A stretch of DNA of 41,485 nt from a virus, in UHGV virus genome UHGV-0203597; one strand, written 5' to 3'. A program made the position numbers and the translations under genes. Every line of letters begins with the position of its first letter. Position 1 is the first letter of the stretch. Below, in pieces: positions 1 to 20,316 of this stretch. Under the pieces are notes generated by a model. That model searched no databases and had not been told where the DNA came from. It saw only the letters and a list, made by a program, of their open reading frames with translations.

Positions 1-36
1 GTGGATTGGTGCTGTTTTTCCATGATAGGGGTAATT

Positions 37-417
37 ATGAGAAAAGTATTTTTGATTTTTGGATTTATGCTTCTCGTTGGATGCCAGTCAGCTGCACAGT
101 TTGAAAGAAATATGCTTACGTGGCGCGGGCAGAGTATAGACGCAATGGTTCAGCAGTGGGGGTATCCTCAGGGAGAGCTTACATCTCCAGATGGAAACAG
201 AGTGTATGTTTACTCAAGCTCTGGTAGTTATAACGTACCACAAACCACAACGTATAATACTACGTCTAATCTAATTGGTAATACTATATATTCAAACACA
301 TACGCAACAACTGATGGCGGTTATACACTCCATTTCAGTTGCTCTGTTTACGTTGAGTTTGGTGCTGATAAGATTATTAAAAATGTTACATGGCGCGGTA
401 ATAATTGCGTTGCGTGA
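37..417 (+). CDS. Putative lipoprotein (moron; candidate superinfection-exclusion or lysogenic-conversion protein)
   Basis: ATG at 37 with AGGGG 6 nt upstream; signal peptide MRKVFLIFGFMLLVGC with lipobox LVGC; Ser/Thr/Tyr/Asn-rich mature part; AT-rich; no TTACC-N5-GGTAA site upstream; followed by hairpin terminator. Confidence 0.6.
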   Translation: MRKVFLIFGFMLLVGCQSAAQFERNMLTWRGQSIDAMVQQWGYPQGELTSPDGNRVYVYSSSGSYNVPQTTTYNTTSNLIGNTIYSNTYATTDGGYTLHFSCSVYVEFGADKIIKNVTWRGNNCVA

Positions 418-425
418 CATGTCAC
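414..425. repeat. 12-bp perfect palindrome GTGACATGTCAC, copy 1 of 3
   Basis: Overlaps the TGA stop of the lipoprotein gene; identical 12-mer at 22054-22065 and 24541-24552. Confidence 0.5.
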
Positions 426-426
426 A

Positions 427-450
427 GGCCGCTTTCGCGGCCTTGTTTTT
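427..450. terminator. Rho-independent terminator hairpin GGCCGC-TTTC-GCGGCC plus T-tract
   Basis: Perfect 6-bp GC stem, 4-nt loop, then TTGTTTTT on + strand; lies between convergent genes; same 18-mer repeated at 3783-3800. Confidence 0.6.
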
Positions 451-610
451 AACGAATGCCACCGCCACCCGGGCGGGAATCCGCAGAACGCCCACCGCAG
501 CGGGAGCCGTCAGCGGCAGTATCGCTGTCGTGCTGACAACGACCGGCAAAGGCCTGAGTTGAAGCTACCAGAGACAACAAAACGAACAGTGCAGCAAATG
601 CTTTTTTCAT
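449..610 (-). CDS. Small secreted peptide (53 aa, SPase I-type signal, two Cys in mature part)
   Basis: ATG at 610; MKKAFAALFVLLSLVASTQAFA then GRCQHDSDTAADGSRCGG...; last gene of the minus-strand operon after the YafO-like gene; weak RBS. Confidence 0.35.
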   Translation of the reverse strand: MKKAFAALFVLLSLVASTQAFAGRCQHDSDTAADGSRCGGRSADSRPGGGGIR

Positions 611-691
611 TGTGAAATTTCCATCTATAAACCACCTCAATGTGGCGTCAATGAGTGTAGCACTGACTTTTGTTTCGTCCATAAAAAACTA

Positions 692-1204
692 CTATGCAGG
701 CTTTTTGGATTTGTACGAATAATCCCACGGATAAACATTTCTACTAAGTGGAGCTGTATTCGTTCGTTCATGAAATAATTTTGTGAAATTCAATACGGAA
801 TCCATCCAAACTTTTGCGTTAGCTTTGGTGTGTGCGGGCGGGTCCCAATAAGCTAGTAAGGCTGCATCTCTTATTTCATTGACTGCATATATGAGATATG
901 CGTTACTGGTTGGTTTTGGCCTGTAATTTCCTTGTTCATCAATCAATCCATATGACCACTCATCCCAACACTGTTCAGTACATGAGTATGAATATGATGC
1001 ATATTCACCAATATTGACATGAACCTTTCTGAGATGGAAGCCTAATACTTCGTCTGGTCTTTCAAAAAGAGTATCTTTTCCCAGATCAGGATGATGACCA
1101 TGACGCCAGTGTTGTTTAAAAGCATCTTTTAGCGAAATCAGAAAGTCATCAGTTTTAAACTCACCAGTAGGTATAACCTTCCCGCTATACTCACTCAAAA
1201 ACAT
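692..1204 (-). CDS. YafO-family toxin-like protein (paralog 1)
   Basis: 170 aa; motifs HWRHGHHPDLGKDTLF, RKVHVNIG, YLIY, AALLAYWDPPAH recalled as matching E. coli YafO (RDGxLPDxFGRD, VAHIHL, LVYC, AWLLIAILKPEPH); 14-nt overlap with upstream gene. Confidence 0.5.
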   Translation of the reverse strand: MFLSEYSGKVIPTGEFKTDDFLISLKDAFKQHWRHGHHPDLGKDTLFERPDEVLGFHLRKVHVNIGEYASYSYSCTEQCWDEWSYGLIDEQGNYRPKPTSNAYLIYAVNEIRDAALLAYWDPPAHTKANAKVWMDSVLNFTKLFHERTNTAPLSRNVYPWDYSYKSKKPA

Positions 1205-1517
1205 CGAATTCCTCTTCCTTCATATGCGTTTCTAATGAGTTAAGCTGGCGGAAAGATATCTCTTTTGATTCTGCAGATGAGAGCTTTTTTATCCGCTTTA
1301 TATTCTTTGTGATAGGAATAGACATTGTATGCACATCAGCGGATGCTCTTGGCTTTGTGCTGATAAAAATATGGCGCAATGCCGCATTTTCACTATTGAA
1401 CGAGCCAATAGCTGATTTACGTGCTACAACCTTACCAGTAAAAATACGACTCTTGCTACGCTTTGCATGAGTTCCGCTTCTTACCGGACCTCTCATCACG
1501 AATCCAAGTTTTGTCAT
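1191..1517 (-). CDS. Small basic protein, putative cognate partner/antitoxin of YafO-like paralog 1 (no family recognised)
   Basis: 108 aa, Lys/Arg-rich with acidic C-terminus EEEFDVFE; GGAGA RBS; overlaps toxin-like gene. Confidence 0.4.
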   Translation of the reverse strand: MTKLGFVMRGPVRSGTHAKRSKSRIFTGKVVARKSAIGSFNSENAALRHIFISTKPRASADVHTMSIPITKNIKRIKKLSSAESKEISFRQLNSLETHMKEEEFDVFE

Positions 1518-1559
1518 CTTTAATCTCCGGTAAGTTACAGGTATAAAATAAAAACAGGT

Positions 1560-1574
1560 TTACCTTTAAGGTAA
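1560..1574. promoter_or_regulatory. TTACC-N5-GGTAA operator-like palindrome
   Basis: ttacctttaaggtaa, 43 nt upstream of the minus-strand ATG at 1517. Confidence 0.45.
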
Positions 1575-1640
1575 TATTACGCGAATCTACATCACATCGC
1601 CAATGATTATTTTAAAGGCACATCCCTGTGCCGCCGCTCG

Positions 1641-2336
1641 TCAGAAGAACCCTGCCTTGTCGTTGATGTACTCCGCGTGGGTCTGGATATCACGCAGGCA
1701 TTTGCTCACACCGACGATGTAGCAGAACATGGTGGTCAGCTCCGCCGCCGCGCCCGATACGTCGTGCCCGTCTTCCTGTAACTGGTTCAGCAGATTCATC
1801 AGCAGTGAGTTCTCCGTCAGGCCGAGAACACCAGACGGCGAGTGAATCAAACTGCGGTAGCCGGGCTTCAGTGGGGCGCTGTAGGTTTTGTTCTCTATCT
1901 TCATTGCCTGCATCACTGCTGATGCTGTGGCGTTGGCTACCTGGTCGGCAACCATCTTTATGCGTTCTTCCTGCGGGAGCGAGTTTTTAATGTAACTTCC
2001 GGTGCGGCGGATCTGAGGAAGAACCTCACCTGTAACCCATTTACGAAAGCGGTAGGGGATAGTGCCTGGTGTCACTGCGTCGCGGCAGCGGAGGATCAGT
2101 GTGTAGAGGCCTGACTCGGAGATGATGATCGATTCTTGCTCACCGCCAGGGGTGTCGGTTGAAGCGACGCCCTTCTCATCATCATCAAGTTTTCGAACAG
2201 CATCTCGATGGTTTGCTATGCCTATAGCCCGACAAACATCTGAAGCGATAAACCATGGCTCACCATTTATGACGATTACTCGTATATCGGCTTGGGATTC
2301 GAAAGAAAAAATGGACGTGCTTTTTGTAGCTGTCAT
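1641..2336 (-). CDS. BRO-N domain antirepressor-like protein with Ant-type C-terminal domain
   Basis: 231 aa; N-terminal motif PWFIASDVCRAIGI typical of BRO-N; C-terminal ~70 aa paralogous to the small protein at 3805-4062. Confidence 0.75.
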   Translation of the reverse strand: MTATKSTSIFSFESQADIRVIVINGEPWFIASDVCRAIGIANHRDAVRKLDDDEKGVASTDTPGGEQESIIISESGLYTLILRCRDAVTPGTIPYRFRKWVTGEVLPQIRRTGSYIKNSLPQEERIKMVADQVANATASAVMQAMKIENKTYSAPLKPGYRSLIHSPSGVLGLTENSLLMNLLNQLQEDGHDVSGAAAELTTMFCYIVGVSKCLRDIQTHAEYINDKAGFF

Positions 2337-2605
2337 AGTGGTTACCTTTTAGTCTGGTTAATCACCACTACCGACGCCAATCGGTTGGTGGTGAACTGTG
2401 CAGGGTTGGCGTAACCGGCTAAAAGGACCCGGCGCACCTTTCGGTGCCCCCACACAGCCCACCATAATACGAATGTGGCCGTGCTATACGCATAAAAAAA
2501 CCGCTTGCGCGGTGAATGCGCCTTTTAGTAATCCGGAACGCCAATCCCGGCACTGGATTTTGCCAGTGCCCGATTACTATGGCACAAGAGGAGTGCAATG
2601 TAAAT

Positions 2606-2620
2606 TTACCGCAAAGGTAA
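2606..2620. promoter_or_regulatory. TTACC-N5-GGTAA operator-like palindrome
   Basis: ttaccgcaaaggtaa in the 420-bp divergent intergenic region between the BRO-N gene and 2758-3285. Confidence 0.45.
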
Positions 2621-2730
2621 TGATAAATGCATAACTCACGTCATTTCAACCCTATGTGGTTTGATTGATCCCATTTCAGAAAATACCTGCCTATTTTTTT
2701 GCCAGTGAGCGTATACTTTCGATAGAATGT

Positions 2731-2745
2731 TTACCCTAAAGGTAG
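2731..2745. promoter_or_regulatory. TTACC-N5-GGTAg operator-like site (one mismatch)
   Basis: ttaccctaaaggtag, 13 nt upstream of the ATG at 2758. Confidence 0.35.
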
Positions 2746-2757
2746 TTGGGGGTGCCC

Positions 2758-3285
2758 ATGAACACGAAGAGAGTTACAGCGATGAGGCATAGACGCTTTG
2801 CCTTGAAAAGGCCTGAAAAAGAAAAAGAGCAAGAGATGGTGATTGAAGCAGCCGCTTATGCTGCAGCTATGGCAACTGCTGATGCGATTAGAAATTATGA
2901 AGAAGAGGATAATAAAAATTCCTATCGCATTTACTTATATGAGAGCCGTCACAGTGTTACAGACCATGAAGCATGCCTAAAAAAACAAGGGGAAGTATTC
3001 CACTGCAACCTTGCTGAGTACATTAGGAATGAAATGGAAAGGAATTTGGCTTTATCTCATTTTGGATACAAGAGTCAGGAAAGTGGTTTCGCTGGCTTTA
3101 AGGATAAAATTAACGAAAGGTGGCAACGTTTATACAAGCCACTTCAAGTTGATGAGAAAACTCATCAACTTGTTATGCATGAGGTCCCAAAGATGTCCGT
3201 AGAGAAATCCCATGCAATCTCGCGCAGGATGTTTGCACGCACTGCTGAAGACATGGCTCAGGAGCTCTACGACGATGCCGAATAA
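2758..3285 (+). CDS. Hypothetical charged helical protein, putative partner of YafO-like paralog 2
   Basis: 176 aa from ATG 2758 (alternative 2746); acidic C-terminus ELYDDAE; stop overlaps start of downstream toxin-like gene; unrelated to the 108-aa partner. Confidence 0.4.
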   Translation: MNTKRVTAMRHRRFALKRPEKEKEQEMVIEAAAYAAAMATADAIRNYEEEDNKNSYRIYLYESRHSVTDHEACLKKQGEVFHCNLAEYIRNEMERNLALSHFGYKSQESGFAGFKDKINERWQRLYKPLQVDEKTHQLVMHEVPKMSVEKSHAISRRMFARTAEDMAQELYDDAE

Positions 3286-3781
3286 ATTCCAGGGGTTGGT
3301 TCACCCTGGAATTTTTGGGAAGGACCCTGAGCTAATACCTATCAAAAACGCGTTCATAGATCACTGGCGCTACGGTCATCATAAGGATTTCGGAAAGGAC
3401 ACTCTGTTTCGAGATCCACCGAAAGAGATGCTGGAATATCACATACGCCACGTTCACTTAAACATCGGAAACTATACTGACAAGTTTGGTGAGAGCGGTA
3501 CGGAACAATGCTGGAAAAACTGGGCGTCTGGGAAGAAAGACAAGACCACTAACAAGCATAAAAAGATCCCAACCAGTGACGTGTATGTGATTTATCTGGT
3601 CACATCTGAACGCCATGCCTTCCTTCTGGATTATTGGGATGAACCAGCGCATAAGACAGTAGAAATTGACGAGCAGAAGCAAAAATTAGTTGTCGAGTGT
3701 GACAGAATTTTGCGGCTGAAAAAGTTAGAATCCATGCCGCGCGATGCAAGTTTGTGGGACCCAGAATTTTACGACTGTTAA
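3275..3781 (+). CDS. YafO-family toxin-like protein (paralog 2)
   Basis: 168 aa from MPNKF; motifs HWRYGHHKDFGKDTLF, RHVHLNIG, YVIY, AFLLDYWDEPAH align with paralog 1. Confidence 0.5.
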   Translation: MPNKFQGLVHPGIFGKDPELIPIKNAFIDHWRYGHHKDFGKDTLFRDPPKEMLEYHIRHVHLNIGNYTDKFGESGTEQCWKNWASGKKDKTTNKHKKIPTSDVYVIYLVTSERHAFLLDYWDEPAHKTVEIDEQKQKLVVECDRILRLKKLESMPRDASLWDPEFYDC

Positions 3782-4257: not shown

Positions 4258-6909
4258 ATGACGGTCTCAACCGAAGTTGACCACAACGAATACACCGGTA
4301 ACGGAGCTACGACATCATTTCCGTATACCTTCCGTATTTTCAAAAAATCCGACCTGGTTGTTCAGGTGTCTGACCTGAACGGGAACGTAACAGAATTGGT
4401 TCTGGATACTGACTACACAGTAACCAATGCTGGAGGATATAATGGCGGTAATGTAATTCTGTCGAAGGCGTTGGCTAACGGTTATCATATTTCTATATCA
4501 CGAGAGCTCCCGGTTACGCAGGATACTGATTTGCGTAATCAGGGTAAGTTCTTCGCTGAGGTACATGAAGACGCGTTCGATAAACTGACAATGCTTATTC
4601 AAAAGTGTTTTTCATGGATGAGGTTAGCACTTATAAAACCAAGCATTCTGGCTAACTATTATGATGCAAAAAATAATAAGATATCAAATCTAGCAAATGC
4701 CACTGACAGAAACGATGCTGTCAATAAAGGTTATGTTGATGATCTTTTTACTGGAGGTGTAACGCCTACACCTAACAGCGCTAAAAACGATATTTTTACA
4801 AATCACCAAAGAAAGATTGTAGCTACGATGCCGCTTCTTTTTCCTGAATATGATGCGATTATGGCTGCTAACCCGTCAGCAACTTATATGTATCCTCAAG
4901 GATTCTGCGTTAGCGAAGATTTGATATACATCACTTATCCATTTGAGCCTAAACAGACGAATAATGTCGTCGCAGTATTTAACATATCTGGTATTTATCA
5001 AGGTTATTTCTATGTTCAGGCTGGCGGCCCAGGCTTCGCTGCTGAAGGAATCGTGGTTACGTCAGACTATGGCCCCAAAAAAATGTTTGTTGGTCACACA
5101 AACGGAATACTGCGTGAATTTAATATGGAGGGGGCATTATACGGAAGCAATCTGCCTCTTGTACAAAACCATGATGTTGGATTATTCAACCAGTTCAGCT
5201 ACAGAAGAGGTATATGGCTCGTTGAGCAGAATGCGCCAGAAGTAGGACAGAAAATCACAAGAACTGTACTTGCAGTGTTCGACAGTGGTTTCAATCGCCT
5301 GTCAACTATAACGCTGCCGTTACATGATGTTGGGTATGTAACTAAAAGCACCTCACCTTATGCGCCTTATTTCAACAAGCGTCAGGGTATTGCGGTAGGT
5401 GATAACTACTTTGTCTGCGGCTATGGCGGCTTCATAGCTGATGGGGCAGGAAGCGCAGGATATAACGAATATCAGGGCAGCAAAGTTTTTAACCCTGACG
5501 GTACAAAGCGAACTGAATCAATGCTTCATCCTCAGGCCATGATGGATTTAATGAAAGCCGCAGGATTGAACGTCACTCGCATAGAAAATGAAGGCGTTTG
5601 TGTTTCTCAGGATGGAAAATCCATTTATTCACTTTACATTCATCAGGAAAGAACTGGCTCTGAACCTTACAATTCAGGTTTGGTTATTTTCGAAGATTTC
5701 TCCACTGATAAAGATGCTATCGATTTTACACCTGCATCCAGGCTTTACCGCGGATTTGATATCGATCACGCGAGCATTGGGGTATATCCCCGTAGTGCGA
5801 AGGGGATTGTTAACCCTGTAGATGGTACGTTGTTCACTAACATGACTGAAATTCTTCGCTATATGCAGGAGATGAGTCAGAAGGCATTTAATTTTTACAC
5901 AGGGACTGTCAGCATTGCTGATATATCTGGCGTGGCAATCCCTTCCAGCACATATGTTGAAATACTGAATGCGAATAATCAGACTTTTATAGTCAACTAT
6001 TATTCATCTGATAGTGGCATTAGTTATTTGGTTGCAACTAATCCTTCTGGTGACTTTGTATTTGTGCGCCAGCGACCGGCACAGTGGGCATCTAACTTAA
6101 CCATTCAGCAAAACGCAGATCCTGATACAAACCAATTAAACCGCATCACTGCATCATCATATGCCGGTGCAACTACAAACTCTCAGAAAATATTGGTCCT
6201 TGACCAGCAGGCTACAGCTAGCGCAAATAGCTTGGTATTGGGCGGTAGTTCTTCTGTGTTTAGGTCTGCCACCACGGTGGATATTGCATGCAACAGCGAC
6301 CCGACAGCATTGGGAGGAACCATACGCTGGCGGTTTTATGATACAGGTCTTCGCCCGTTTGCTGACAATACCTATAATTTTGGTCAGGCATCGTTTCGTA
6401 TTAAAGACGCCTACTTTGCAAATGCCCCAACCGTTTCATCAGATGCCACGCTGAAAACCAATCCCGAGGCAATATCAGATTTAAGTGAAATGCTTTCTTC
6501 TGATAGAGACAGCATTCTTGATGCCTGGGGCGATATTTCTGTTGTGGCGTATCGATGGCTCGACGCTATATCCATGAAGGGCGATGGTGCCAGATGGCAT
6601 TTTGGCGTCATGGCTCAGCAGGTAAGGGATGTATTCTTGGCGCACGGAATTGATGGAACCAGATTTGGCCTTCTTTGCTATGACGAGTGGGATGATATTT
6701 TTGAGCCGGTAATCGCGACTAAAGAGATTACCGATACGTCTGGTGAGTTGGTCACCGTCGAATATGACACCGGAGAACAGAGGCTGGTTAAAAAAGCGGG
6801 TAGTTCATGGGGTATACGGCCTGACCAGTGCGCTTGGCTTGAGGCTGCATATCAGCGCCGTCGATGCGATCGTATTGAAGAGCGACTCGAACTATTGGAA
6901 TCAAAATAA
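4258..6909 (+). CDS. Tailspike / tail fibre with T7 gp17-like N-terminal domain and C-terminal S74 intramolecular chaperone
   Basis: 883 aa; N-terminus resembles T7-type fibre anchor; C-terminus has RWHFGVMAQQV and GLLCYDEWDD recalled as S74 auto-processing chaperone motifs; central domain unassigned. Confidence 0.8.
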   Translation: MTVSTEVDHNEYTGNGATTSFPYTFRIFKKSDLVVQVSDLNGNVTELVLDTDYTVTNAGGYNGGNVILSKALANGYHISISRELPVTQDTDLRNQGKFFAEVHEDAFDKLTMLIQKCFSWMRLALIKPSILANYYDAKNNKISNLANATDRNDAVNKGYVDDLFTGGVTPTPNSAKNDIFTNHQRKIVATMPLLFPEYDAIMAANPSATYMYPQGFCVSEDLIYITYPFEPKQTNNVVAVFNISGIYQGYFYVQAGGPGFAAEGIVVTSDYGPKKMFVGHTNGILREFNMEGALYGSNLPLVQNHDVGLFNQFSYRRGIWLVEQNAPEVGQKITRTVLAVFDSGFNRLSTITLPLHDVGYVTKSTSPYAPYFNKRQGIAVGDNYFVCGYGGFIADGAGSAGYNEYQGSKVFNPDGTKRTESMLHPQAMMDLMKAAGLNVTRIENEGVCVSQDGKSIYSLYIHQERTGSEPYNSGLVIFEDFSTDKDAIDFTPASRLYRGFDIDHASIGVYPRSAKGIVNPVDGTLFTNMTEILRYMQEMSQKAFNFYTGTVSIADISGVAIPSSTYVEILNANNQTFIVNYYSSDSGISYLVATNPSGDFVFVRQRPAQWASNLTIQQNADPDTNQLNRITASSYAGATTNSQKILVLDQQATASANSLVLGGSSSVFRSATTVDIACNSDPTALGGTIRWRFYDTGLRPFADNTYNFGQASFRIKDAYFANAPTVSSDATLKTNPEAISDLSEMLSSDRDSILDAWGDISVVAYRWLDAISMKGDGARWHFGVMAQQVRDVFLAHGIDGTRFGLLCYDEWDDIFEPVIATKEITDTSGELVTVEYDTGEQRLVKKAGSSWGIRPDQCAWLEAAYQRRRCDRIEERLELLESK

Positions 6910-8969: not shown

Positions 8970-9000
8970 CCCTCTGTTTTTACAGAGGGTTTTTGTTTTT
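8970..9000 (+). terminator. Rho-independent terminator at the end of the tailspike-lysis unit
   Basis: ccctctg-ttttta-cagaggg followed by tttttgttttt. Confidence 0.7.
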
Positions 9001-9056
9001 ATGTATTCATTTCTATTCACTCTACACCATATTTTTCGTCGGTACAGGTGACGGTA

Positions 9057-9071
9057 TTACCTTAAAGGTAT
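9057..9071. promoter_or_regulatory. TTACC-N5-GGTAt operator-like site upstream of int
   Basis: ttaccttaaaggtat, 43 nt upstream of the int start. Confidence 0.35.
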
Positions 9072-9113
9072 ACTCTCATACCGTCATGAAAATGGTTTCT
9101 ATACGGGTGAATT

Positions 9114-10370
9114 GTGCTTACCGATACAAAATTAAAAAACCTCAAGCCGCAGGACAAACTGTACAAGGTCTCCGATCGTGACGGGCTGTATGTAGCTGTG
9201 CTTACGTCAGGCACGGTCTCGTTTCGCTATGACTACCGTATCAACGGTCGCCGCGAAACACTGGTAATCGGGCAGTATGGGCGTGACGGTATCAGCCTGG
9301 CAGAAGCGCGAGAAGAACTGATTGCTGCAAAGAAGCTGCTTAAAGCAGGCCAGTCACCGGCTGCGGCTAAACGTGACGGTATTAAAAAGATTCGTGGTGC
9401 CGAGACGTTTGCGGTACATACCGACAGTTATATGAAACACGTCATCCTGGCTGACAGTACCCGCGCAATGAAGCAGGCGGTGATCGACCGTGACATACTT
9501 CCGGTTCTTGGCAACAAAATGATGGCTGAAATTACCACATCAATGGTTCGTGATTTGTGTGACCGGATTGTCGAACGCGGTGGTCGGGCAACAGCAGTAC
9601 AGGCCAGGGAGATCATCAGCAGCGTATACCGTCACGCCAATGACCGTGGTCATGGTTTGTTTAATCCTGCGGCTGACATTAAACCTTCGTCTATCGCCAT
9701 ATTTAAACCACGAGAGCGAACACTGACACCAGAAGAAATTGGTCTGTTCTTCCGCACGCTGGATGCCATTGGTGCTATGGGCACTATGAAAATGGCTTTA
9801 AAGCTGGTGCTTATCACCATGGTTCGTAAGGGAGAATTCACCAATGCAACGTGGGATGAAATAGATTTTAAAAAATGGACATGGACAATTCCTTCAGACC
9901 GCATGAAGGGAAGTCGGGCGCACGTTATTTACCTGCCTAAACAGGCACAGGATATATTAGTCGGGTTGCAGATGTGCGCTGGTGGAAGTGAATATCTGGT
10001 TCCTGGTCGTTACAATTTCCGGAAGCCATTATCTAATGCCGCGCTGAACTCTCTGATCGACAGAACGGTGAAAATAATAAATGAAGATGGTGAGCATATT
10101 CAGGATTTTACTGTACATGATATGCGCCGTACAGCCAGTACATTGTTGCATGAGGCTGGTTATCCTTCAGACTGGATTGAAAAGGCTCTGGCACACGAGC
10201 AGAAAGGTGTGCGCGCCGTATATAACAAAGCGGAATACGCCAGACAGCGCGCCTACATGTTGCAGCAGTGGGCCGATATGATTGATTCCTGGATTAACGG
10301 GGAGCATACGGATCTGATTCCGTTCTCCCCGTCGAAGTTTGAGAAGTGGATGGAAGACAGTAATAAATAA
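9114..10370 (+). CDS. int: Tyrosine integrase (P4-like, N-terminal arm-binding domain)
   Basis: 418 aa, GTG start; N-terminal LTDTKLKNLKP...DGLYV; C-terminal catalytic region with HDMRRTASTLL and terminal Tyr region. Confidence 0.9.
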   Translation: MLTDTKLKNLKPQDKLYKVSDRDGLYVAVLTSGTVSFRYDYRINGRRETLVIGQYGRDGISLAEAREELIAAKKLLKAGQSPAAAKRDGIKKIRGAETFAVHTDSYMKHVILADSTRAMKQAVIDRDILPVLGNKMMAEITTSMVRDLCDRIVERGGRATAVQAREIISSVYRHANDRGHGLFNPAADIKPSSIAIFKPRERTLTPEEIGLFFRTLDAIGAMGTMKMALKLVLITMVRKGEFTNATWDEIDFKKWTWTIPSDRMKGSRAHVIYLPKQAQDILVGLQMCAGGSEYLVPGRYNFRKPLSNAALNSLIDRTVKIINEDGEHIQDFTVHDMRRTASTLLHEAGYPSDWIEKALAHEQKGVRAVYNKAEYARQRAYMLQQWADMIDSWINGEHTDLIPFSPSKFEKWMEDSNK

Positions 10371-10372
10371 TT

Positions 10373-11032
10373 CTATCCTTCCTGGACTTTGGTAAGCGTC
10401 AGATTTCCGCAGAACACTGCGCCGGTGTCGATGTACATTTGGTTTGCATACACCAGTGGGTGATGTGCTGGCGTATGACCGAAGATGAACAAATCGGCAC
10501 CGGTTATCTCCGAGACAATACCGTCCTGCGCGTCGCTAACCCGCTCACGATTCCATATCACCATTTCTTCCGGTACTGGCTTATCGAATGCGTATTCGTT
10601 GTGCGGGTAGTCTGCGTGGCAGATGACGACCTTCTTATTGCCGGTAACCAGTTCGATAATCATCGGGAGGTTGGTAACCTTTGGCAGAAGGTATTTGAGT
10701 TGCACATCCTGCTCAGAATCAAGTTGGTGCCACCATCCACCGCCGTTTGACATCCAATGTCCGAAACTTCCGCCGTTGACCAGTGCATCCAGCATCATCT
10801 GCTCATGGTTGCCACGAACAGCTCGGAACCACGGCATAGTAATCAAATCCAGGCATTCGACGTTTTCAGCGCCGCGGTCAACAAGGTCACCAACGGAAAT
10901 AAGCAAATCGCGCGCCGGGTCGAATGAAACTTTGTCGAGTTCGTTCATCAGCAGCGTGTAGCACCCATGCAGATCGCCGACGACGAAGATATTGCACCAG
11001 TCAGCGCCATTGATGCGTTGATATAGGTTCAT
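10373..11032 (-). CDS. Ser/Thr protein phosphatase (PPP / lambda-phosphatase-like)
   Basis: 220 aa from MNLYQRI; motifs VVGDLHG, GDLVDRG, GNHE. Confidence 0.85.
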
Positions 11033-11679
11033 GCTGCACGCTCCCGCCCCTGGTTGTCTGTTGGTGACAGCGGAGCATTGCTGAATGCATTTGTTAATCC
11101 GCCGATATCCAACGCGTATCCAGGGTGTAGTTGCACTGCCGGGTCTTCGCACTGATTACCCCAAACATCGAAGCCATGAGACGTCTGGCGGGCGAACAGT
11201 TCAATGCGAGAAACATCGCCTAATAATTGCACAAGTTTTTCACGAACGATATCTGGCTTTCTTGAATGCTCAAGCCGCGGTGCGGTAAATGACTGAACGA
11301 TCCCTGCATTAATGCGCGTAGGTAGTTTTCCCTTTACCGCAAACAGGCAATCTTCACTATTGGCGCGAGTCATGTGTCCCATACCCATAACCAGTTTATC
11401 TGGTTGTCGACTACCACATTTTATCCACGTGAAGCCCTTCATCGTCATCAGACGGAATCCCCAGGCTTCAACAACTTTTAGTGCTTCGAGTGGTTGTGTT
11501 GGCACCCACCACATGGCCAACAGACAGTTTTCATCGGCCAAATCCCACACAGGAAGGCGGCAGATATCCAGCACACTCATAACCGGATATTTAAAACCGG
11601 CACCGCGATTACCATCTGCGGCTTTGTCCCGGTATACCCAGGGTGGATCTGCATAGATTAGTGTGTATTTCTTAGTCAT
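11029..11679 (-). CDS. DNA N6-adenine methyltransferase, MT-A70-like (no restriction partner present)
   Basis: 216 aa from [14 protein letters not shown]; DPPW catalytic motif; 4-nt overlap with phosphatase start. Confidence 0.8.
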
Positions 11680-11971
11680 AAACCACCCCACAACATCCTA
11701 TGCCGCTATAGTCGCCACGGCGAAGGCCGTTACCTTTTGTGATACATTGGTCCCTGCGAACCGCGATCCTTGCACGTTCAACATCACCAGAAGCAACATC
11801 CATACACTGAAGCCAAAGGTGAGCGGCAATGCGGAATTGCCCTTTTTTCTCTCTTTCAATCGCGCGTTTTTCGATCTCTATCGCCGCAGGAGTAACGGCG
11901 ACAATCTTTGACGGACTGCGCATTGAAACCTTATTCATGTGATATTTTTCAAGTCGGCTTAACTTTCTCAC
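11672..11971 (-). CDS. PerC-like putative transcriptional regulator (start uncertain)
   Basis: Pattern GQFRIAAHLWLQC...RARIAVRRDQC recalled as PerC-like; candidate starts GTG 11971, ATG 11938, ATG 11923. Confidence 0.35.
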   Translation of the reverse strand: MRKLSRLEKYHMNKVSMRSPSKIVAVTPAAIEIEKRAIEREKKGQFRIAAHLWLQCMDVASGDVERARIAVRRDQCITKGNGLRRGDYSGIGCCGVVYD

Positions 11972-12080
11972 TTAATCCAACCCTCTCTGAAAATTAATGC
12001 CAGCAGATAAAGCCATGCTGAAACAGAGGCCAGGAATAAGTACCATCCTGACCATTTGCTCCAGTGCCTTAGCAGCGCAC

Positions 12081-12329
12081 TCATGCAGCGTTGCTCACGG
12101 GACGATATACACGTTGCTGAACAGGAGGCTTTTTACCCTGGAACTCTGCCGGGCTTGCTGCCTGACGTTCATCAAGCCAACGCTCAACTTCATCACGGTT
12201 CCATGCGCAGCGTTTATCGGTGATATACCAGCGTTTAGGAAATTCCCCTGCGCGCTCCATACGGTCGATAGTGCTCCATGACAGTGGCACCACCGCCAGG
12301 AGTTCTTTCTTACCTAATGCACCTTTCAT
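12081..12329 (-). CDS. AlpA-family excisionase / DNA-binding regulator
   Basis: 82 aa; LLAVVPLSWSTIDRMERAGEFPKR...WNRDEVERWL resembles AlpA/Xis winged HTH; AGAGAGG RBS. Confidence 0.6.
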   Translation of the reverse strand: MKGALGKKELLAVVPLSWSTIDRMERAGEFPKRWYITDKRCAWNRDEVERWLDERQAASPAEFQGKKPPVQQRVYRPVSNAA

Positions 12330-12378
12330 GAATACCTCTCTTGGTTGCAGTGCGGCGCACGTGGCGCCGCGGTGGTGG

Positions 12379-13320
12379 TTACATAGATGTTTCGTTTAAT
12401 TCTTCCCGACGAACGCTGTAAACGTCGGTTGCTTTTGCCAGCAGTTCGTCATCATCTGAAAGTTTTTGTGCAATGTATTTGTAAGCCTTATCCAGTTCGG
12501 AGACAGTGCTGTAATTCATCGCTGCGCTGGTAAAGGCCATCAGCATTTCTTCTGGATCACGGCTGTCCGATTTACGCGTTTGCTCATCAGGCTTTTTCGC
12601 TGGTTTAGCGTTGATCAGACTGTTCATTCCCGCAGCAGTGGTCGTTTGCGGAGTAATGTCTCGCTCAACGCGCGGTGCCGTTTCCTGTAATTCGTCTGGG
12701 GTGTAGACGCCCATGATTACGTCAGGACAGTGCAGGCGAGACCAGCGTTTTGTCGCAAGGTATGCGAGTTGTTGTTTCGGATCACTGGCCCAAAGTGTGG
12801 AGTTTCTTACCTGTGCTTGAGACAGCATTAACTCAAGCACTCGAGGTTGATCCTCGCCCTTCATGGTTGCCCATACGCGAACACCGCAGCCTTCTTCGTC
12901 TTTTAGAGTCCAGCCTGGTGCGATATATGGATTGCCGTTTTTGGATGTTTTCTCAACAAACTTACCGATCACGCGTTCCCACGGCCCGAACCACTCGTAG
13001 TTGATGCGATCTTTTGTTGGCGACATCGTTGAGATAACTGCGTTTACTAATTGGGCTTCATAACCTAGCGTGCCGTTCACAACATGGGTTTTCTGAGCCA
13101 CGGCAAACGGGTTCATTCCCCACTGCGCAGCCTGCATTGCCACGGCCATGCAATCAGCTGGTTTCCCGGCGAGGTGCGCCGGTACCGTTACGCGGCTTTG
13201 CGCCATTACCTCGGCGAATTTCATCAGTTGGTTCAAGCCGTCTGGGCTGAAAATAGTTGCAGCAGTTCCAGCGATTGCTGTGTCTACTGGTGCGTTGATG
13301 TTTGCGATGTCGTTGCTCAT
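12379..13320 (-). CDS. Single-strand annealing recombinase (RecT/Red-beta superfamily)
   Basis: 314 aa from MSNDIANI; motif similarities to Bet/RecT (AQWGMNP, WASDPKQQLAYLATKRW); start overlaps exonuclease stop. Confidence 0.65.
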   Translation of the reverse strand: MSNDIANINAPVDTAIAGTAATIFSPDGLNQLMKFAEVMAQSRVTVPAHLAGKPADCMAVAMQAAQWGMNPFAVAQKTHVVNGTLGYEAQLVNAVISTMSPTKDRINYEWFGPWERVIGKFVEKTSKNGNPYIAPGWTLKDEEGCGVRVWATMKGEDQPRVLELMLSQAQVRNSTLWASDPKQQLAYLATKRWSRLHCPDVIMGVYTPDELQETAPRVERDITPQTTTAAGMNSLINAKPAKKPDEQTRKSDSRDPEEMLMAFTSAAMNYSTVSELDKAYKYIAQKLSDDDELLAKATDVYSVRREELNETSM

Positions 13321-14138
13321 ATGTACATATCCTGTTTGCGTGCCCACTCAGGGCGTTTAATGATTTCCACACCGCCCCATTCATCATTGATGCGGCATTC
13401 GTGATAGGTATTCAGATCCCGGCGGAACAGAGCGTGCCCGGCATCGACATCCTGCGCATCCAGCTCGAACACGCGTACCGGATACCGACCACAATCAATG
13501 CTTTCGCTCACGGCAAGAAAGAAAAAACCATGCGGCTGACCAGTAACCCTCATTGCGCCTTCGCGGTACATTGCGTCCTGCACGTGGTAGCGGAATTCCT
13601 CGATGTGGCGTGCAAAACGGTCCATATCTGCAACCTTTTTCACGTCGACGATCACGTTGTGCTCGTTCAGCCATTTGTCTGGACGAATTCGGCACAACTC
13701 CCCCGTCTCTTCATCGTTCCAGTACATTGATGCTTCGCAGTAACCAGGTGCTTCCAGCATCCAGCGTGCCGCCGGGTGAGCCATTGCGCTATCACGCATC
13801 AGCTCCAGTTTCCGCCACTGCTCGGCATCAAGTACCGTAATCCCCATATCCGCCACATCACGAAGAAATTCCTCTTCGTCAGCTTTACCTTGTTTCGTCC
13901 GACGATCGAATTTCGGTGAAACAATGAAGCGTTTGTCGAACTCTCCAGGCTCCAGAAGCAGACAGTGCAATGCGGTTCCCATATCCAGTGCAGACTTTTT
14001 CTCTTCGTCTTCTGGTGCTGCCTGAACCCATTTAAGAAGCGCCGGATTCTTGGCAACCATGTCCAGTTGCGACTTACTCACGCCGTCACCGGCGTGGTAG
14101 TCTTCGTTGCTGATGTCGAAATAAATTCCCGGTTTCAT
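13317..14138 (-). CDS. Putative recombination exonuclease, PD-(D/E)XK type (RecE-like)
   Basis: 273 aa; nuclease-like motif IVDVKK; paired upstream of the annealing protein. Confidence 0.55.
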   Translation of the reverse strand: MKPGIYFDISNEDYHAGDGVSKSQLDMVAKNPALLKWVQAAPEDEEKKSALDMGTALHCLLLEPGEFDKRFIVSPKFDRRTKQGKADEEEFLRDVADMGITVLDAEQWRKLELMRDSAMAHPAARWMLEAPGYCEASMYWNDEETGELCRIRPDKWLNEHNVIVDVKKVADMDRFARHIEEFRYHVQDAMYREGAMRVTGQPHGFFFLAVSESIDCGRYPVRVFELDAQDVDAGHALFRRDLNTYHECRINDEWGGVEIIKRPEWARKQDMYI

Positions 14139-14608: not shown

Positions 14609-14623
14609 TTACCGTTGAGGTAA
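14609..14623. promoter_or_regulatory. TTACC-N5-GGTAA operator-like palindrome (left operator region)
   Basis: ttaccgttgaggtaa. Confidence 0.5.
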
Positions 14624-14670
14624 TAATTATGCGTATATGGTTTGATGTCAATAGATATGAGTTAAAAAAA

Positions 14671-14685: not shown

Positions 14686-14704
14686 TCGAATAGGCAATAA
14701 AAAA

Positions 14705-14720
14705 GCCGCCATAAGGCGGC
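14705..14720 (-). terminator. Terminator hairpin downstream of the repressor gene
   Basis: gccgcc-ataa-ggcggc flanked by A/T tracts; T-tract follows on the minus strand. Confidence 0.6.
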
Positions 14721-14742
14721 TTACTTACTGAAAAATATGGTT

Positions 14743-15327
14743 TTATTGTTTGTTTTTTTCGTTCTGGTTGATGACAAATTCAATGTAACTTTCGATCTTT
14801 GCTTTCTCGGTTTCGGGTAACAATGCGTAGCGTGAGCGGTCATAGTTGATAGTCGCAGGGTCGTGCGGGTGAATCAGTAGTTCATATCCGTGACGCCCGA
14901 ATGCGGATGCAACATTCTCCAGGGTGGAAATGGAAACGCTGACCTCATTGTTTAACAGGCGGCTGATTGTCACCTGGGCGACGCCGGATGCGCGGTGAAG
15001 TTTTCCCTGAGTTGAAAGGTCGCGGCTTTCACTCATCCAGCGTTCCAGGTTGTGAGCTGCCAGCTGACCAATGTCGCTTGGGCCGACAGGCTGAAAACCT
15101 TCCTGAGAAAGCGAGCGATCGATATCAAGCCAGTTACGGGGTTTATTGGCGGCAGCTTCAATTTTTCGCGCAACCTGGTCGCCGATAACCTTCTTGCCAA
15201 GAGCCCAGCGGTTTACCAGATTTGCCTGAGTTCCAAGTTTTTCTGCCATCCGCGTCTGAACACCATTGAATTCACGGTCGATCAAGTCGTTGAGATTTTG
15301 CCTGCGGACGTCCTGGATACTTTTCAT
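14743..15327 (-). CDS. Prophage repressor, two HTH domains, no LexA-like autocleavage domain
   Basis: 194 aa; HTH-like segments near residues 25-45 and 105-130; no Ala-Gly/Ser-Lys protease module; flanked by operator palindromes on both sides. Confidence 0.6.
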   Translation of the reverse strand: MKSIQDVRRQNLNDLIDREFNGVQTRMAEKLGTQANLVNRWALGKKVIGDQVARKIEAAANKPRNWLDIDRSLSQEGFQPVGPSDIGQLAAHNLERWMSESRDLSTQGKLHRASGVAQVTISRLLNNEVSVSISTLENVASAFGRHGYELLIHPHDPATINYDRSRYALLPETEKAKIESYIEFVINQNEKNKQ

Positions 15328-17787: not shown

Positions 17788-18141
17788 ATGAGAAAACAGA
17801 TACAGGCTCTTGGTCGACTCAAAACAGGCCAGATGAACAAAACAGAATCTGCGTATTGCCAGCACCTTGAGCTTCGTAAACGTGCAGGGGAAATCGCCTG
17901 GTATCGATTCGAGGGTATCAAGCTACGGTTAGCTGACAACTGCTTCCTGACTGTAGATTTTGCCGTGATGTTGGCTGACGGGCAGTTGGTGATGGTGGAC
18001 GTTAAGGGAAGTAAGTCAGTCTTTACTGACGATGCGAGAGTCAAGATGAAGGTTGCGGCAGACAGCTATCCGTTTGTCTTTCAGGTTGCTTATCCAAAAC
18101 CTAAAAAGCTCGGTGGTGGATGGGAGGTTGAGGAACTATGA
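17788..18141 (+). CDS. Putative PD-(D/E)XK nuclease (DUF1064-like), possible junction resolvase
   Basis: 117 aa; TVDFAV...VMVDVKG fits D...(D/E)xK; family recalled from memory. Confidence 0.4.
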   Translation: MRKQIQALGRLKTGQMNKTESAYCQHLELRKRAGEIAWYRFEGIKLRLADNCFLTVDFAVMLADGQLVMVDVKGSKSVFTDDARVKMKVAADSYPFVFQVAYPKPKKLGGGWEVEEL

Positions 18142-18746
18142 GCGAGAAGCCCAATGCTGCGGGATTGATTGTATCCGGTGATAAAAACCCGAATTGGAAG
18201 GGTGGGAAAATCGAAAAGGTTTGCTCCGTATGTGGCAGGCAATATCAGGTTAAGCGAGCCAACTCATCTTCAAGGTTCTGCTCACTTCAGTGTGTAGGAA
18301 TTTCACAGCGAGGCAAGACGGTAAATCGGGAACTAAAGCGAGTATTAAAAATATGCTGCGTATGCGGATCTTCGTTCTCCGTTTTCTTGAGTCATGAGAA
18401 GCGTCATAAATGCTGCTCGAAACAGTGTTCCAACATAATGCGTTCTTCTCTGATGAAGGGGGAAGGAAATCCAAACTGGTCTGGTGGATTATCGAGATTG
18501 CCGTATCCGTGGGATTTCCGAGAAACGAGCAAGAGGGTTATTGAGCGAGATGGTTTTACTTGTCAGAACCCAGGTTGTGATGGAACAGACAAAAGGCTAA
18601 CAACTCATCACATCAATTACGACAAGCAAGATTGTCGTCAGGAGAACCTTATTTGCCTTTGTTCGAGCTGTAACTCGAAGGCTAATTTCGGTCGGCATAA
18701 GTGGCAAAAGTTTTATGAATCACTGATGAAAAATAGATCGGCATGA
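18138..18746 (+). CDS. HNH homing endonuclease
   Basis: 202 aa; repeated NPNWKGG/NPNWSGG motifs; HNH core HHINYDKQDCRQENLICLCSSCN; AT-rich relative to neighbours. Confidence 0.8.
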   Translation: MSEKPNAAGLIVSGDKNPNWKGGKIEKVCSVCGRQYQVKRANSSSRFCSLQCVGISQRGKTVNRELKRVLKICCVCGSSFSVFLSHEKRHKCCSKQCSNIMRSSLMKGEGNPNWSGGLSRLPYPWDFRETSKRVIERDGFTCQNPGCDGTDKRLTTHHINYDKQDCRQENLICLCSSCNSKANFGRHKWQKFYESLMKNRSA

Positions 18747-19466: not shown

Positions 19467-19822
19467 GCGAGATTAATTATCAGGAAGGGCATGAAAAGGC
19501 AGGGCAGGCAAAACCAGTGGCATGGCGATATCGCTACGTGAAAAAAGGCGTTACAGACTTTCAGGGGAAGCAGTGGGTTGGTGACTGGAAATATGTACCG
19601 ACAAAAGAGGATTGCAACGACAGACCGAACTATGAAATTCAGGCGTTATTCACTGCCCCGCCTGTGCCACTGACACCAGAAGGATTGATTAAAGCAGTGC
19701 GTTTCTATGAACAGGTAAAGCGTGAGAATCCGCCAGTCGAAACCGGAGCATGGAAAGACGCTGTTGACTGGGTGCTCAAAGAGGCTTGCCAGTCTGTAAA
19801 CATTGGCATCAAAGGAGAGTGA
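19463..19822 (+). CDS. Hypothetical protein
   Basis: 119 aa; coupled. Confidence 0.4.
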   Translation: MSEINYQEGHEKAGQAKPVAWRYRYVKKGVTDFQGKQWVGDWKYVPTKEDCNDRPNYEIQALFTAPPVPLTPEGLIKAVRFYEQVKRENPPVETGAWKDAVDWVLKEACQSVNIGIKGE

Positions 19823-19825
19823 GAA

Positions 19826-20316
19826 TGCAAATTTCACCGGTTACTCTTCGTGTTGCGAAGGCGTTTATATCCAGACATCACCGACACAATAACCCCCCGG
19901 TGGGGCATAAATTCAGCATTGGTCTGAGAAATGATGCCGGAGAATTGATAGGTGTGGCGACAGCCGGTCGACCTGTTGCACGACATTTGGATGATGGATT
20001 AACGCTTGAAGTAAATCGCACATGTACCACAGGAGAACGCAACGCTAACAGCGCGCTTTATGGTGCTGTCTGGCGGGCAGCAAAAGCTATGGGTTATCAA
20101 CGTTGTATTACGTACACCCGGGCAGATGAATCAGGAGCATCTCTTCGCGCAGCTGGTTTTGTTCGTGTGAAAGAGCTTCCTCCAAGAAAAAGCTGGGCGG
20201 AATCAAGCGTCGCCCTGCGGAGTAAACGCGATCCAGTCGGAAACGGTGGTGTTCCTCGTGTGCTCTGGGAAATCAGGATAATGAGTACCACTGGTATTCG
20301 CATCAAAGGAGAGTGA
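19826..20316 (+). CDS. Hypothetical protein, possibly acetyltransferase-like fold
   Basis: 163 aa from MQISPV; AAAGGAG RBS; pattern LIGVATAGRP...TYTRADESGASLRAAGF reminiscent of an acyl-CoA N-acyltransferase core (uncertain). Confidence 0.4.

Follow-up and report, generated by a model that had tools for sequence, protein, structure and literature searches.

What do three small overlapping genes beside the integrase contribute to a temperate phage of E. coli, and do they form one unit? In the window, by which we mean the whole 41,485-nucleotide stretch of DNA that was analysed, three minus-strand ORFs occupy positions 10373-11971 and are predicted to encode a protein phosphatase, an adenine methyltransferase and a PerC-like protein. 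A reading made from the sequence alone had described them as an integrase-adjacent cluster at the distal end of a leftward operon and had regarded them as candidates for self-protection, epigenetic regulation or manipulation of the host. We have compared the genes, their arrangement and their neighbours with those of related phages and prophages, and with the published work on close relatives of the proteins.

The leftward array and the phage that carries it

The stop codon of the methyltransferase gene and the start codon of the phosphatase gene share the sequence ATGA, a 4-base overlap, and the PerC-like and methyltransferase genes overlap by 8 bases. Only 2 bases separate the stop codon of the phosphatase gene from that of the integrase gene, which is convergent with it. 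As regards the ORFs and their identities, their overlaps and their adjacency to the integrase, the sequence-only reading was correct. A Shine-Dalgarno-like sequence precedes each of the three starts. The three genes are the distal members of a series of nine closely packed minus-strand genes that runs from 14589 to 10373 (Table 1), and in the lower part of this array, from AlpA to the phosphatase, overlaps of 4-8 bases are the rule. The AlpA-family gene is probably an excisionase or regulator, and the 38-aa ORF that follows it is labelled a membrane protein in the phiV10 record. A promoter-like site, situated just past the hairpin that trails a repressor-like gene, is a candidate for the early leftward promoter, and no terminator-like site was seen on the minus strand between it and 10373. 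The nine-gene array, the promoter-like site and the lack of a terminator-like site in between fit the suggestion that these genes would form the distal end of a leftward operon.

Table 1. Features of the integrase-proximal region of the window (positions are those of the whole stretch).
Feature	Coordinates	Strand	Remarks
P4-type tyrosine integrase	9114..10370	+	Arm-DNA-bind_3, Phage_int_M and Phage_integrase domains; convergent with the array
Swapped cassette segment	10354..11027	.	From comparison of the window, phiV10 and L018
Lambda-type (NinI-like) predicted Mn-dependent Ser/Thr protein phosphatase, 219 aa	10373..11032	-	Last gene of the array
Orphan MT-A70-family predicted N6-adenine methyltransferase, 216 aa	11029..11679	-	DPPW at residues 11-14
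PerC-family small helical protein, 99 aa	11672..11971	-	GTG start in a GTGA overlap with the preceding ORF
38-aa ORF with hydrophobic stretch	11968..12084	-	phrog_17484 E=3e-27, named 'membrane protein'
AlpA-family protein	12081..12329	-	PF05930 E=3e-5; phrog_66 'excisionase and transcriptional regulator' E=2e-16
RecT	12379..13347	-	PF03837 E=2e-44
PD-(D/E)XK RecE-like nuclease	13317..14138	-	PF12684 E=1e-22
Two promoter-proximal small genes, 104 aa and 50 aa	14135..14589	-	phrog_856, phrog_898
Promoter-like site TTGACA-17-AATTAT	14623..14651	-	10/12 consensus match only
Terminator-like hairpin	14703..14722	-	Downstream of the repressor-like gene at 14743-15327

The window represents a phiV10/epsilon15-like phage of the genus Uetakevirus and is close kin of phiV10 (NC_007804). 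The region is 98% identical to the Escherichia phages vB_EcoP_PAS61 (OQ921333) and BP9. PAS61 has the gene order of the window, with 98% identity across 9000-12500; its tailspike region and some portions of the rightward early region are different. The PAS61 record names the phosphatase, the adenine methyltransferase and the integrase and lists the PerC-like gene as hypothetical. In phiV10 the integrase, methyltransferase, PerC-like, 38-aa and AlpA genes are the same as in the window, but in this phage and in most relatives a gene for a 64-aa DUF1382 protein occupies the position of the phosphatase. The whole cluster is present in 143 of 5426 complete E. coli genomes, many of the copies being 100% identical, and at least part of the region is matched in 626 of these genomes. 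The RefSeq product names are serine/threonine protein phosphatase, MT-A70 family methyltransferase and PerC family transcriptional regulator. Public E. coli genomes therefore already contain the cluster, annotated with the same product names, so that little in it is new, and close relatives of its genes have previously been characterised experimentally (PMC10810198, PMC7556043). All three are accessory genes of an ordinary kind in a temperate E. coli phage of the phiV10 type.

The methyltransferase and its target

Translation of the methyltransferase was taken to start at the ATG at 11679, within an ORF that spans 11029-11691. The protein matches the entire profile of the beta-class MT-A70 family (PF05063, positions 1-172 of 172; E=3e-22, 79.9 bits against a cut-off of 23.9) and the PADLOC Type II MTase model (E=3e-77), and IMG/VR holds 100% identical copies of it. 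The solved structures nearest to it by sequence are those of ciliate MT-A70 family proteins and METTL3. A non-specific enzyme of the M.EcoGII or Hia5 type was considered and rejected, M.EcoGII being a 349-aa DPPY protein and the Hia5 group belonging to the alpha class (PMC5778455). No nuclease gene adjoins the methyltransferase gene, the neighbours of which are the PerC-like and phosphatase genes. The only endonuclease-like ORF found among those scanned is an HNH gene (18138-18746) in the rightward operon, 6.5 kb away, and none of the 49 features of PAS61, the nearest annotated relative, is a restriction enzyme. The description of this enzyme as solitary, with no restriction partner, is accordingly borne out by the adjacent genes and by the PAS61 annotation.

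Over residues 1-187 the protein is 83% identical to the enzyme of the Stx2a phage phiPA8; beyond residue 187 its tail, the C-terminal 29 residues, is unrelated to that of the phiPA8 protein. M.EcoPA8orf6770P and M.EcoGV, both from Stx2a phages, possess DPPW and, as in the window, are encoded at an integrase-proximal site in the leftward operon. In the Stx2a phages, however, the gene upstream of the methyltransferase encodes PNB-2, whereas in the window this position is taken by the PerC-like gene. The HK639 methyltransferase is about 45% identical to that of the window and contains a 24-residue mid-protein insertion that the window enzyme lacks; we would expect this insertion to fall in the target-recognition region. 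The HK639 enzyme is in turn 75% identical to that of Serratia phage BZS1 (PhiBZS1_p32), and both belong to the same family as the window enzyme and are encoded, as it is, downstream of the integrase region.

Published reports disagree as to whether the target of this clade is GATC in DNA or 16S rRNA. The BZS1 enzyme was found by experiment to be GATC-specific (PMC7556043), and M.EcoGV is listed as a GATC enzyme and, according to two papers that both cite Fang 2012 for the result, methylated GATC in vivo on overproduction (PMC10810198, PMC6602927). On the other side, Gong et al. reported that purified M.EcoPA8orf6770P was nearly inactive on DNA in vitro, including DNA from which Dam methylation was absent (dam-minus), and that it bound PNB-2, which the upstream gene encodes, in a 1:1 complex with a preference for 16S rRNA (PMC10810198). 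Together with PNB-2 the enzyme raised spontaneous prophage induction; a version in which DPPW was mutated to APPA was also made, and the modified rRNA base was left unidentified (PMC10810198). A C-terminal tail of about 27 aa, typical of the STEC enzymes, was proposed to be necessary for PNB-2 binding (PMC10810198). With the help of the published terminator we located PNB-2 in phage PA8 as a protein of 143 aa with a winged-helix-like segment. A tblastn search of the whole window with E up to 10 revealed no homologue of PNB-2, and the STEC-type tail is absent from the window methyltransferase, the alignment stopping at residue 187.

The occurrence of GATC in the phage DNA sheds little light on this question. 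GATC occurs at 146 sites in the window, an observed/expected ratio of 0.71 that makes it mildly under-represented, and no GATC site is present in the region upstream of int or in the region of the leftward promoter. The GATC content of the window offers no independent sign of the specificity of the methyltransferase, and the sites do not cluster at these promoters. Self-protection against restriction or epigenetic regulation had been suggested as the role of the enzyme. As a default this was reasonable, although it overlooked the published work on the clade, and since GATC is missing from both regions there is no support for epigenetic control of the int and leftward promoters. It must also be borne in mind that the E. 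coli hosts already possess Dam, with which a GATC enzyme would be partly redundant.

Related loci were also compared. The comparison set consisted of nine species-representative genome loci that carry the AlpA/PerC-like/integrase module, and in seven of these the 38-aa ORF is also matched. An MT-A70 gene is present in six of the nine, always separated from the PerC-like gene by other genes. The remaining three have a PerC-like gene and no MT-A70 gene, and at the same position encode a 183-aa protein that belongs to an unrelated family of methyltransferases, phage Dam (PF05869; E=6e-59 and 1e-55 in the two loci scanned, the third protein being a clear homologue). In 9/9 loci, therefore, the interval between the PerC-like gene and int contains an adenine methyltransferase gene, either MT-A70 or phage Dam. 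Members of PF05869 include the Dam proteins of phages T1, HP1 and VT2-Sa, which we take to be GATC DNA methyltransferases, and the exchange of MT-A70 for phage Dam would then have put in its place a gene of separate ancestry whose expected function is similar. Such a displacement favours the inference that DNA adenine methylation is the function under selection at this position. Because M.EcoPA8orf6770P was nearly inactive on DNA in vitro, the assignment of GATC rests on in vivo overexpression of relatives; by analogy with them, the window methyltransferase most likely acts on DNA, at GATC.

The surroundings of the gene are also variable. Its immediate upstream neighbour is a winged-helix gene in Tyrion, DUF1317 in a Klebsiella phage and a DndB-like gene in SPC32H, and in all three the PerC-like gene is found further upstream; DUF1317, the DndB-like gene and the winged-helix gene are the genes that intervene between PerC-like and MT-A70 in these relatives. 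HK639 and a Hafnia phage are more distant; the gene upstream of the methyltransferase is an ORF of no known family in the former and DUF4060 in the latter, and no PerC-like gene was seen in the region examined of either. The methyltransferase is thus optional cargo beside a conserved AlpA/38-aa/PerC block.

The PerC-like protein, the phosphatase and the cassette slot

The GTG start of the PerC-like gene at 11971 is supported by conservation of the N-terminal 11 residues among its homologues, which are confined to enterobacterial prophages and, in the alignment that we used, are 59-94% identical over their full length across genera. The protein matches phrog_868 (E=6e-62) and, over profile positions 5-50 of 90 only, the PerC family PF06069 (E=6e-7, 30.1 bits with a cut-off of 22.6). 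It therefore shares a family with PerC of the EPEC plasmid pEAF and with Pch of EHEC prophages, the match covering just the first half of the profile. A weak resemblance to the ANR family, of which Aar is a member, falls below the cut-off (NF033650, 23.6 bits against 32). A similar resemblance was noted for the PICI protein EcCIMP1_025, a repressor of LEE1 whose authors suspected it to be ANR-like (PMC11773190, PMC6092414). Gram-negative PICIs present PerC-like genes in the same AlpA-PerC-integrase context as that of the window (PMC11773190, PMC6092414).

An AlphaFold model of the protein consists of four helices, with a core (residues 28-82) at pLDDT 85-90 and a low-confidence C-terminus. When the PDB was searched with this model no significant fold match was returned, the best being MIT/TPR-like three-helix bundles with E>0.7, and no DNA-binding or helix-turn-helix fold was recognised in the model. 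The protein had been called a PerC-like activator. Its membership of PF06069 stands, but PerC-family proteins of mobile elements differ in their influence on LEE1, which some activate, others repress and still others leave unaffected (PMC11773190, PMC6092414), and 'activator' must for this reason be regarded as a family label rather than a reliable prediction.

For the phosphatase, whose ORF extends over 10373-11152, the ATG at 11032 is a likelier start than the GTG at 11152. The protein matches Metallophos (PF00149, calcineurin-like phosphoesterase; E=2e-15), phrog_246 (E=9e-108) and the lambda phosphatase structure 1G5B, the last with E=7e-100 and without gaps over residues 1-217. The metallophosphoesterase motifs GDxHG, GDxVDRG and GNHE and the downstream His ligands are all present. 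In lambda numbering, the protein retains D20, H22, D49, R53, N75, H76, H139, R162 and H186, nine residues that we take from the 1G5B literature to be those of the lambda active site. These matches and residues agree with the earlier assignment of the gene to the PPP phosphatases, which is correct. The NCBIfam equivalogs for phosphatases of the E. coli PrpA/PrpB type are matched below their cut-off (266 versus 326 bits), so that the protein would be a paralogue of these host enzymes and not an equivalog.

Lambda NinI (ORF221, 1G5B) is about two-thirds identical to the window phosphatase. Its gene belongs to the nin region, within the rightward operon, whereas the window gene is the last of the leftward operon, beside the integrase. 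A recent lambdoid source of the cassette was looked for and not found: apart from PAS61 and one other record (>=99%), the best phage matches are lambdoid NinI proteins with only 65-67% identity, so that the gene was not recently acquired from a nin region.

The comparison of the window with phiV10 and L018 reveals exactly where the phosphatase gene has been exchanged. On the methyltransferase side the three sequences diverge directly after the ATGAA at the methyltransferase stop, and on the other side the junction falls inside the final codons of int, the integrase ending in ...WMEDSNK in the window and in ...WMAGE in phiV10 and L018. The identity of the junctions is based on these three sequences. 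The contents of the slot were then tallied in 80 IMG/VR loci, namely those with a methyltransferase 98-100% identical to that of the window. DUF1382 was found in 55, the phosphatase in 19 and a third cassette, composed of an 82-aa ORF and an AntA-type antirepressor, in 6. As alternative cassettes occur at the same junctions in relatives, the phosphatase is interchangeable cargo, one of at least three cassettes that are swapped at exact junctions. Treating the three genes as one unit is consequently right as regards their adjacency but not otherwise, because the phosphatase is swappable and the methyltransferase is optional beside the AlpA/38-aa/PerC block.

Weighing the explanations

The explanation that we prefer, to which we assign a probability of roughly 60%, is that these are accessory genes of a leftward operon that encode a helical regulator, a DNA methyltransferase and a swappable phosphatase. 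The comparison establishes what the genes are, that their catalytic residues are intact, how they overlap, where the cassette junctions fall and how the genes are distributed among relatives; for the timing of expression, the substrates and the benefit to the phage, we infer the following. The three genes would be non-essential and, in a temperate podophage of the phiV10 type, would close the early leftward operon as the genes farthest from its promoter; this operon also carries recombination and excision genes. The PerC-like protein would be a small helical regulator that works by contacting proteins and does not itself bind DNA. Between the AlpA/38-aa/PerC block and the integrase there would be a region of variable cargo, which has held an adenine methyltransferase in every related locus examined. 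After induction or infection the orphan MT-A70 enzyme would methylate adenine in DNA, most probably at GATC; this would keep the fast-replicating phage DNA fully methylated and would protect it against restriction enzymes that cut unmethylated sites. The last slot would be a swap site, from which, in this phage, a lambda-type phosphatase may dephosphorylate proteins of the host or the phage in the lytic cycle, while being as dispensable as lambda ninI.

The main rival is that the methyltransferase is chiefly a 16S rRNA enzyme, which tunes spontaneous prophage induction either alone or with some other partner. Its identity over residues 1-187 to M.EcoPA8orf6770P, an enzyme reported both to prefer rRNA and to alter induction (PMC10810198), argues for this, as does the eukaryotic MT-A70 character of the nearest solved structures. 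Yet PNB-2, the defining partner that confers the RNA preference, is not in the window, the tail that has been tied to PNB-2 binding is different, a Dam-family enzyme (PF05869) fills the same position in three relatives, and the published work did not say which rRNA base is modified. On balance we consider such a role unlikely. The gap left by PNB-2 might be filled by the PerC-like protein, acting as a specificity subunit of the methyltransferase, with the 8-base overlap ensuring coupled synthesis of the complex. The two genes are indeed adjacent and overlapping in both the window and phiV10, MT-A70 enzymes often require a partner (PMC10810198), and the PerC-like model resembles a protein-binding helical bundle. 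But the PerC-like protein has no sequence similarity to PNB-2, and its adjacency to the methyltransferase is not conserved: one to three genes intervene in Tyrion, the Klebsiella phage, SPC32H and 6/9 genome loci, and in 3/9 loci the PerC-like gene is found with no MT-A70 gene at all. Overlaps of this size, moreover, are usual in the lower array, so that the overlap says nothing specific about this pair. We have rejected the PerC-like protein as a PNB-2-like partner on these grounds and give the proposal very little credence.

The phosphatase raises a different alternative, that it counters host kinase-based anti-phage or toxin systems and that the swap slot is an anti-defence hotspot. Accessory and counter-defence loci typically exchange their cargo at fixed junctions, as this slot does, and the phosphatase is intact and present in about a quarter of related prophages (19/80 loci; 143/626 matching genomes). 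It has no known target, however, and the other cargo of the slot, the antirepressor and the DUF1382 protein, is not known to act against defence. There was no PADLOC match, in a library that covers defence rather than counter-defence proteins. Lambda ninI is non-essential and has no reported phenotype beyond this (PMC10695390). We therefore regard a counter-defence role as doubtful. A broader version would join the two rivals: the MT-A70 enzyme would set induction through 16S rRNA in the absence of PNB-2, by means of its own tail or of another protein, and the slot would exchange cargo for host manipulation or counter-defence, with the phosphatase directed against kinase signalling. This combination seems to us quite improbable. 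At the other extreme, the genes might be inert passengers, decaying or never expressed. The three genes could be read in this way only against several observations, namely that the frames are intact, that the catalytic residues checked are all there, that Shine-Dalgarno-like sequences precede each start, that 100% identical copies occur in many independent genomes, and that PerC-like homologues from different genera are conserved along their entire length, with 59-94% identity. Inertness is accordingly a reading in which we place hardly any weight.

The displacement of one methyltransferase by another at the same place in the module, MT-A70 or phage Dam, argues that selection there is for DNA adenine methylation. 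The window enzyme is a natural PNB-2-free variant and as such provides test material for the dispute over GATC in DNA versus 16S rRNA. The slot that may contain DUF1382, the phosphatase or the antirepressor offers naturally near-isogenic phages with which the role of a lambda-type phosphatase can be probed in vivo. No such enzyme, lambda ninI included, has an in vivo substrate known to us. A 76-aa ORF of phage 06-3462 was considered as PNB-2 and rejected, the PA8 terminator placing PNB-2 at 143 aa, and phage 06-3462 carries a different or split version of this protein.

Gene exchange beside and at the methyltransferase position

In the integrase-proximal slot, between the methyltransferase gene and int, some relatives carry a third cassette, described for locus L018 in the table below and present too in L048, L072, L073, L019 and L049. 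Its 82-aa ORF starts at the same ATGA. The MT-A70 position itself is occupied by a PF05869 Dam-family gene in three related prophages, of Pseudocitrobacter, Scandinavium and Candidatus Erwinia dacicola; there the MT-A70 gene has been displaced by one whose ancestry is different. In L099, from Klebsiella pneumoniae ATCC 13883, and in L094, from a prophage of Scandinavium, the ORF immediately 5' of the MT-A70 gene gives a PDDEXK_5 match (E=5e-5, under the cut-off) and could encode a nuclease partner of the methyltransferase; no counterpart was seen in the examined part of the window. Loci L046 and L075 contain about 1.1 kb of additional DNA between the PerC-like and methyltransferase genes (about 1902-3001), and there the methyltransferase match begins at residue 3. 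This DNA is possibly an insertion sequence, and is reminiscent of phage PA2, in which IS629 disrupts the homologous gene (PMC10810198).

Features of the window and of related loci (L-numbers, each with its own coordinates)
Feature	Location	Strand	Evidence or content
phrog_1651 protein	window 692-1204	-	phrog_1651; weak YafO-toxin-like Pfam match
Bro-N protein	window 1641-2336	-	
Paralogue of the 692-1204 product	window 3212-3781	+	phrog_1651
Tailspike	window 4258-6909		Peptidase_S74 chaperone domain
HNH endonuclease, 202 aa	window 18138-18746	+	phrog_1271, E=4e-23
Mom-like DNA modification protein, 176 aa	window 19786-20316	+	phrog_1384, E=3e-42
Third slot cassette	L018 3648-4877		82-aa ORF, then 218-aa AntA/AntB-type antirepressor
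Phage Dam-family methyltransferase	L092 3754-4344; L095 3799-4350; L096 3942-4493		PF05869
ORF directly upstream of MT-A70 gene	L099 3819-4325; L094 3754-4332		weak PD-(D/E)XK endonuclease match

Candidate partners and a putative second modification gene

The HNH product also has weak ZorE-like matches (PADLOC). Its gene belongs to the early genes on the rightward side, at a distance of 6.5 kb from the methyltransferase gene, and by this position the product is no restriction partner of that enzyme. With the Mom-like protein the phage would have two putative adenine-modifying functions; Pfam Mom matches this protein at only E=2e-4, under the cut-off. Its gene has no DNA-level counterpart in PAS61, the nearest annotated relative, which differs from the window also at the phrog_1651/Bro-N region and at the tailspike.

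Where the Stx2a phage PA8 encodes the 143-aa PNB-2, the published partner of its methyltransferase (L090 2054-2485), phage 06-3462 has two short annotated ORFs of 55 and 76 aa (L003 2607-3004). Since these agree with PNB-2 only in the last few residues, some Stx2a phages carrying this methyltransferase may be without an intact PNB-2.

Convergence of int and the leftward array

The stop codons of int and of the leftward array converge 2 bases apart (window 10368-10375), with no terminator-like site between them. From this arrangement antisense read-through is predicted in both directions, so that leftward transcripts should continue into int, and int transcripts should enter the phosphatase and methyltransferase genes. 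A similarly close convergence at int is common to PAS61, phiV10, Tyrion and SPC32H.
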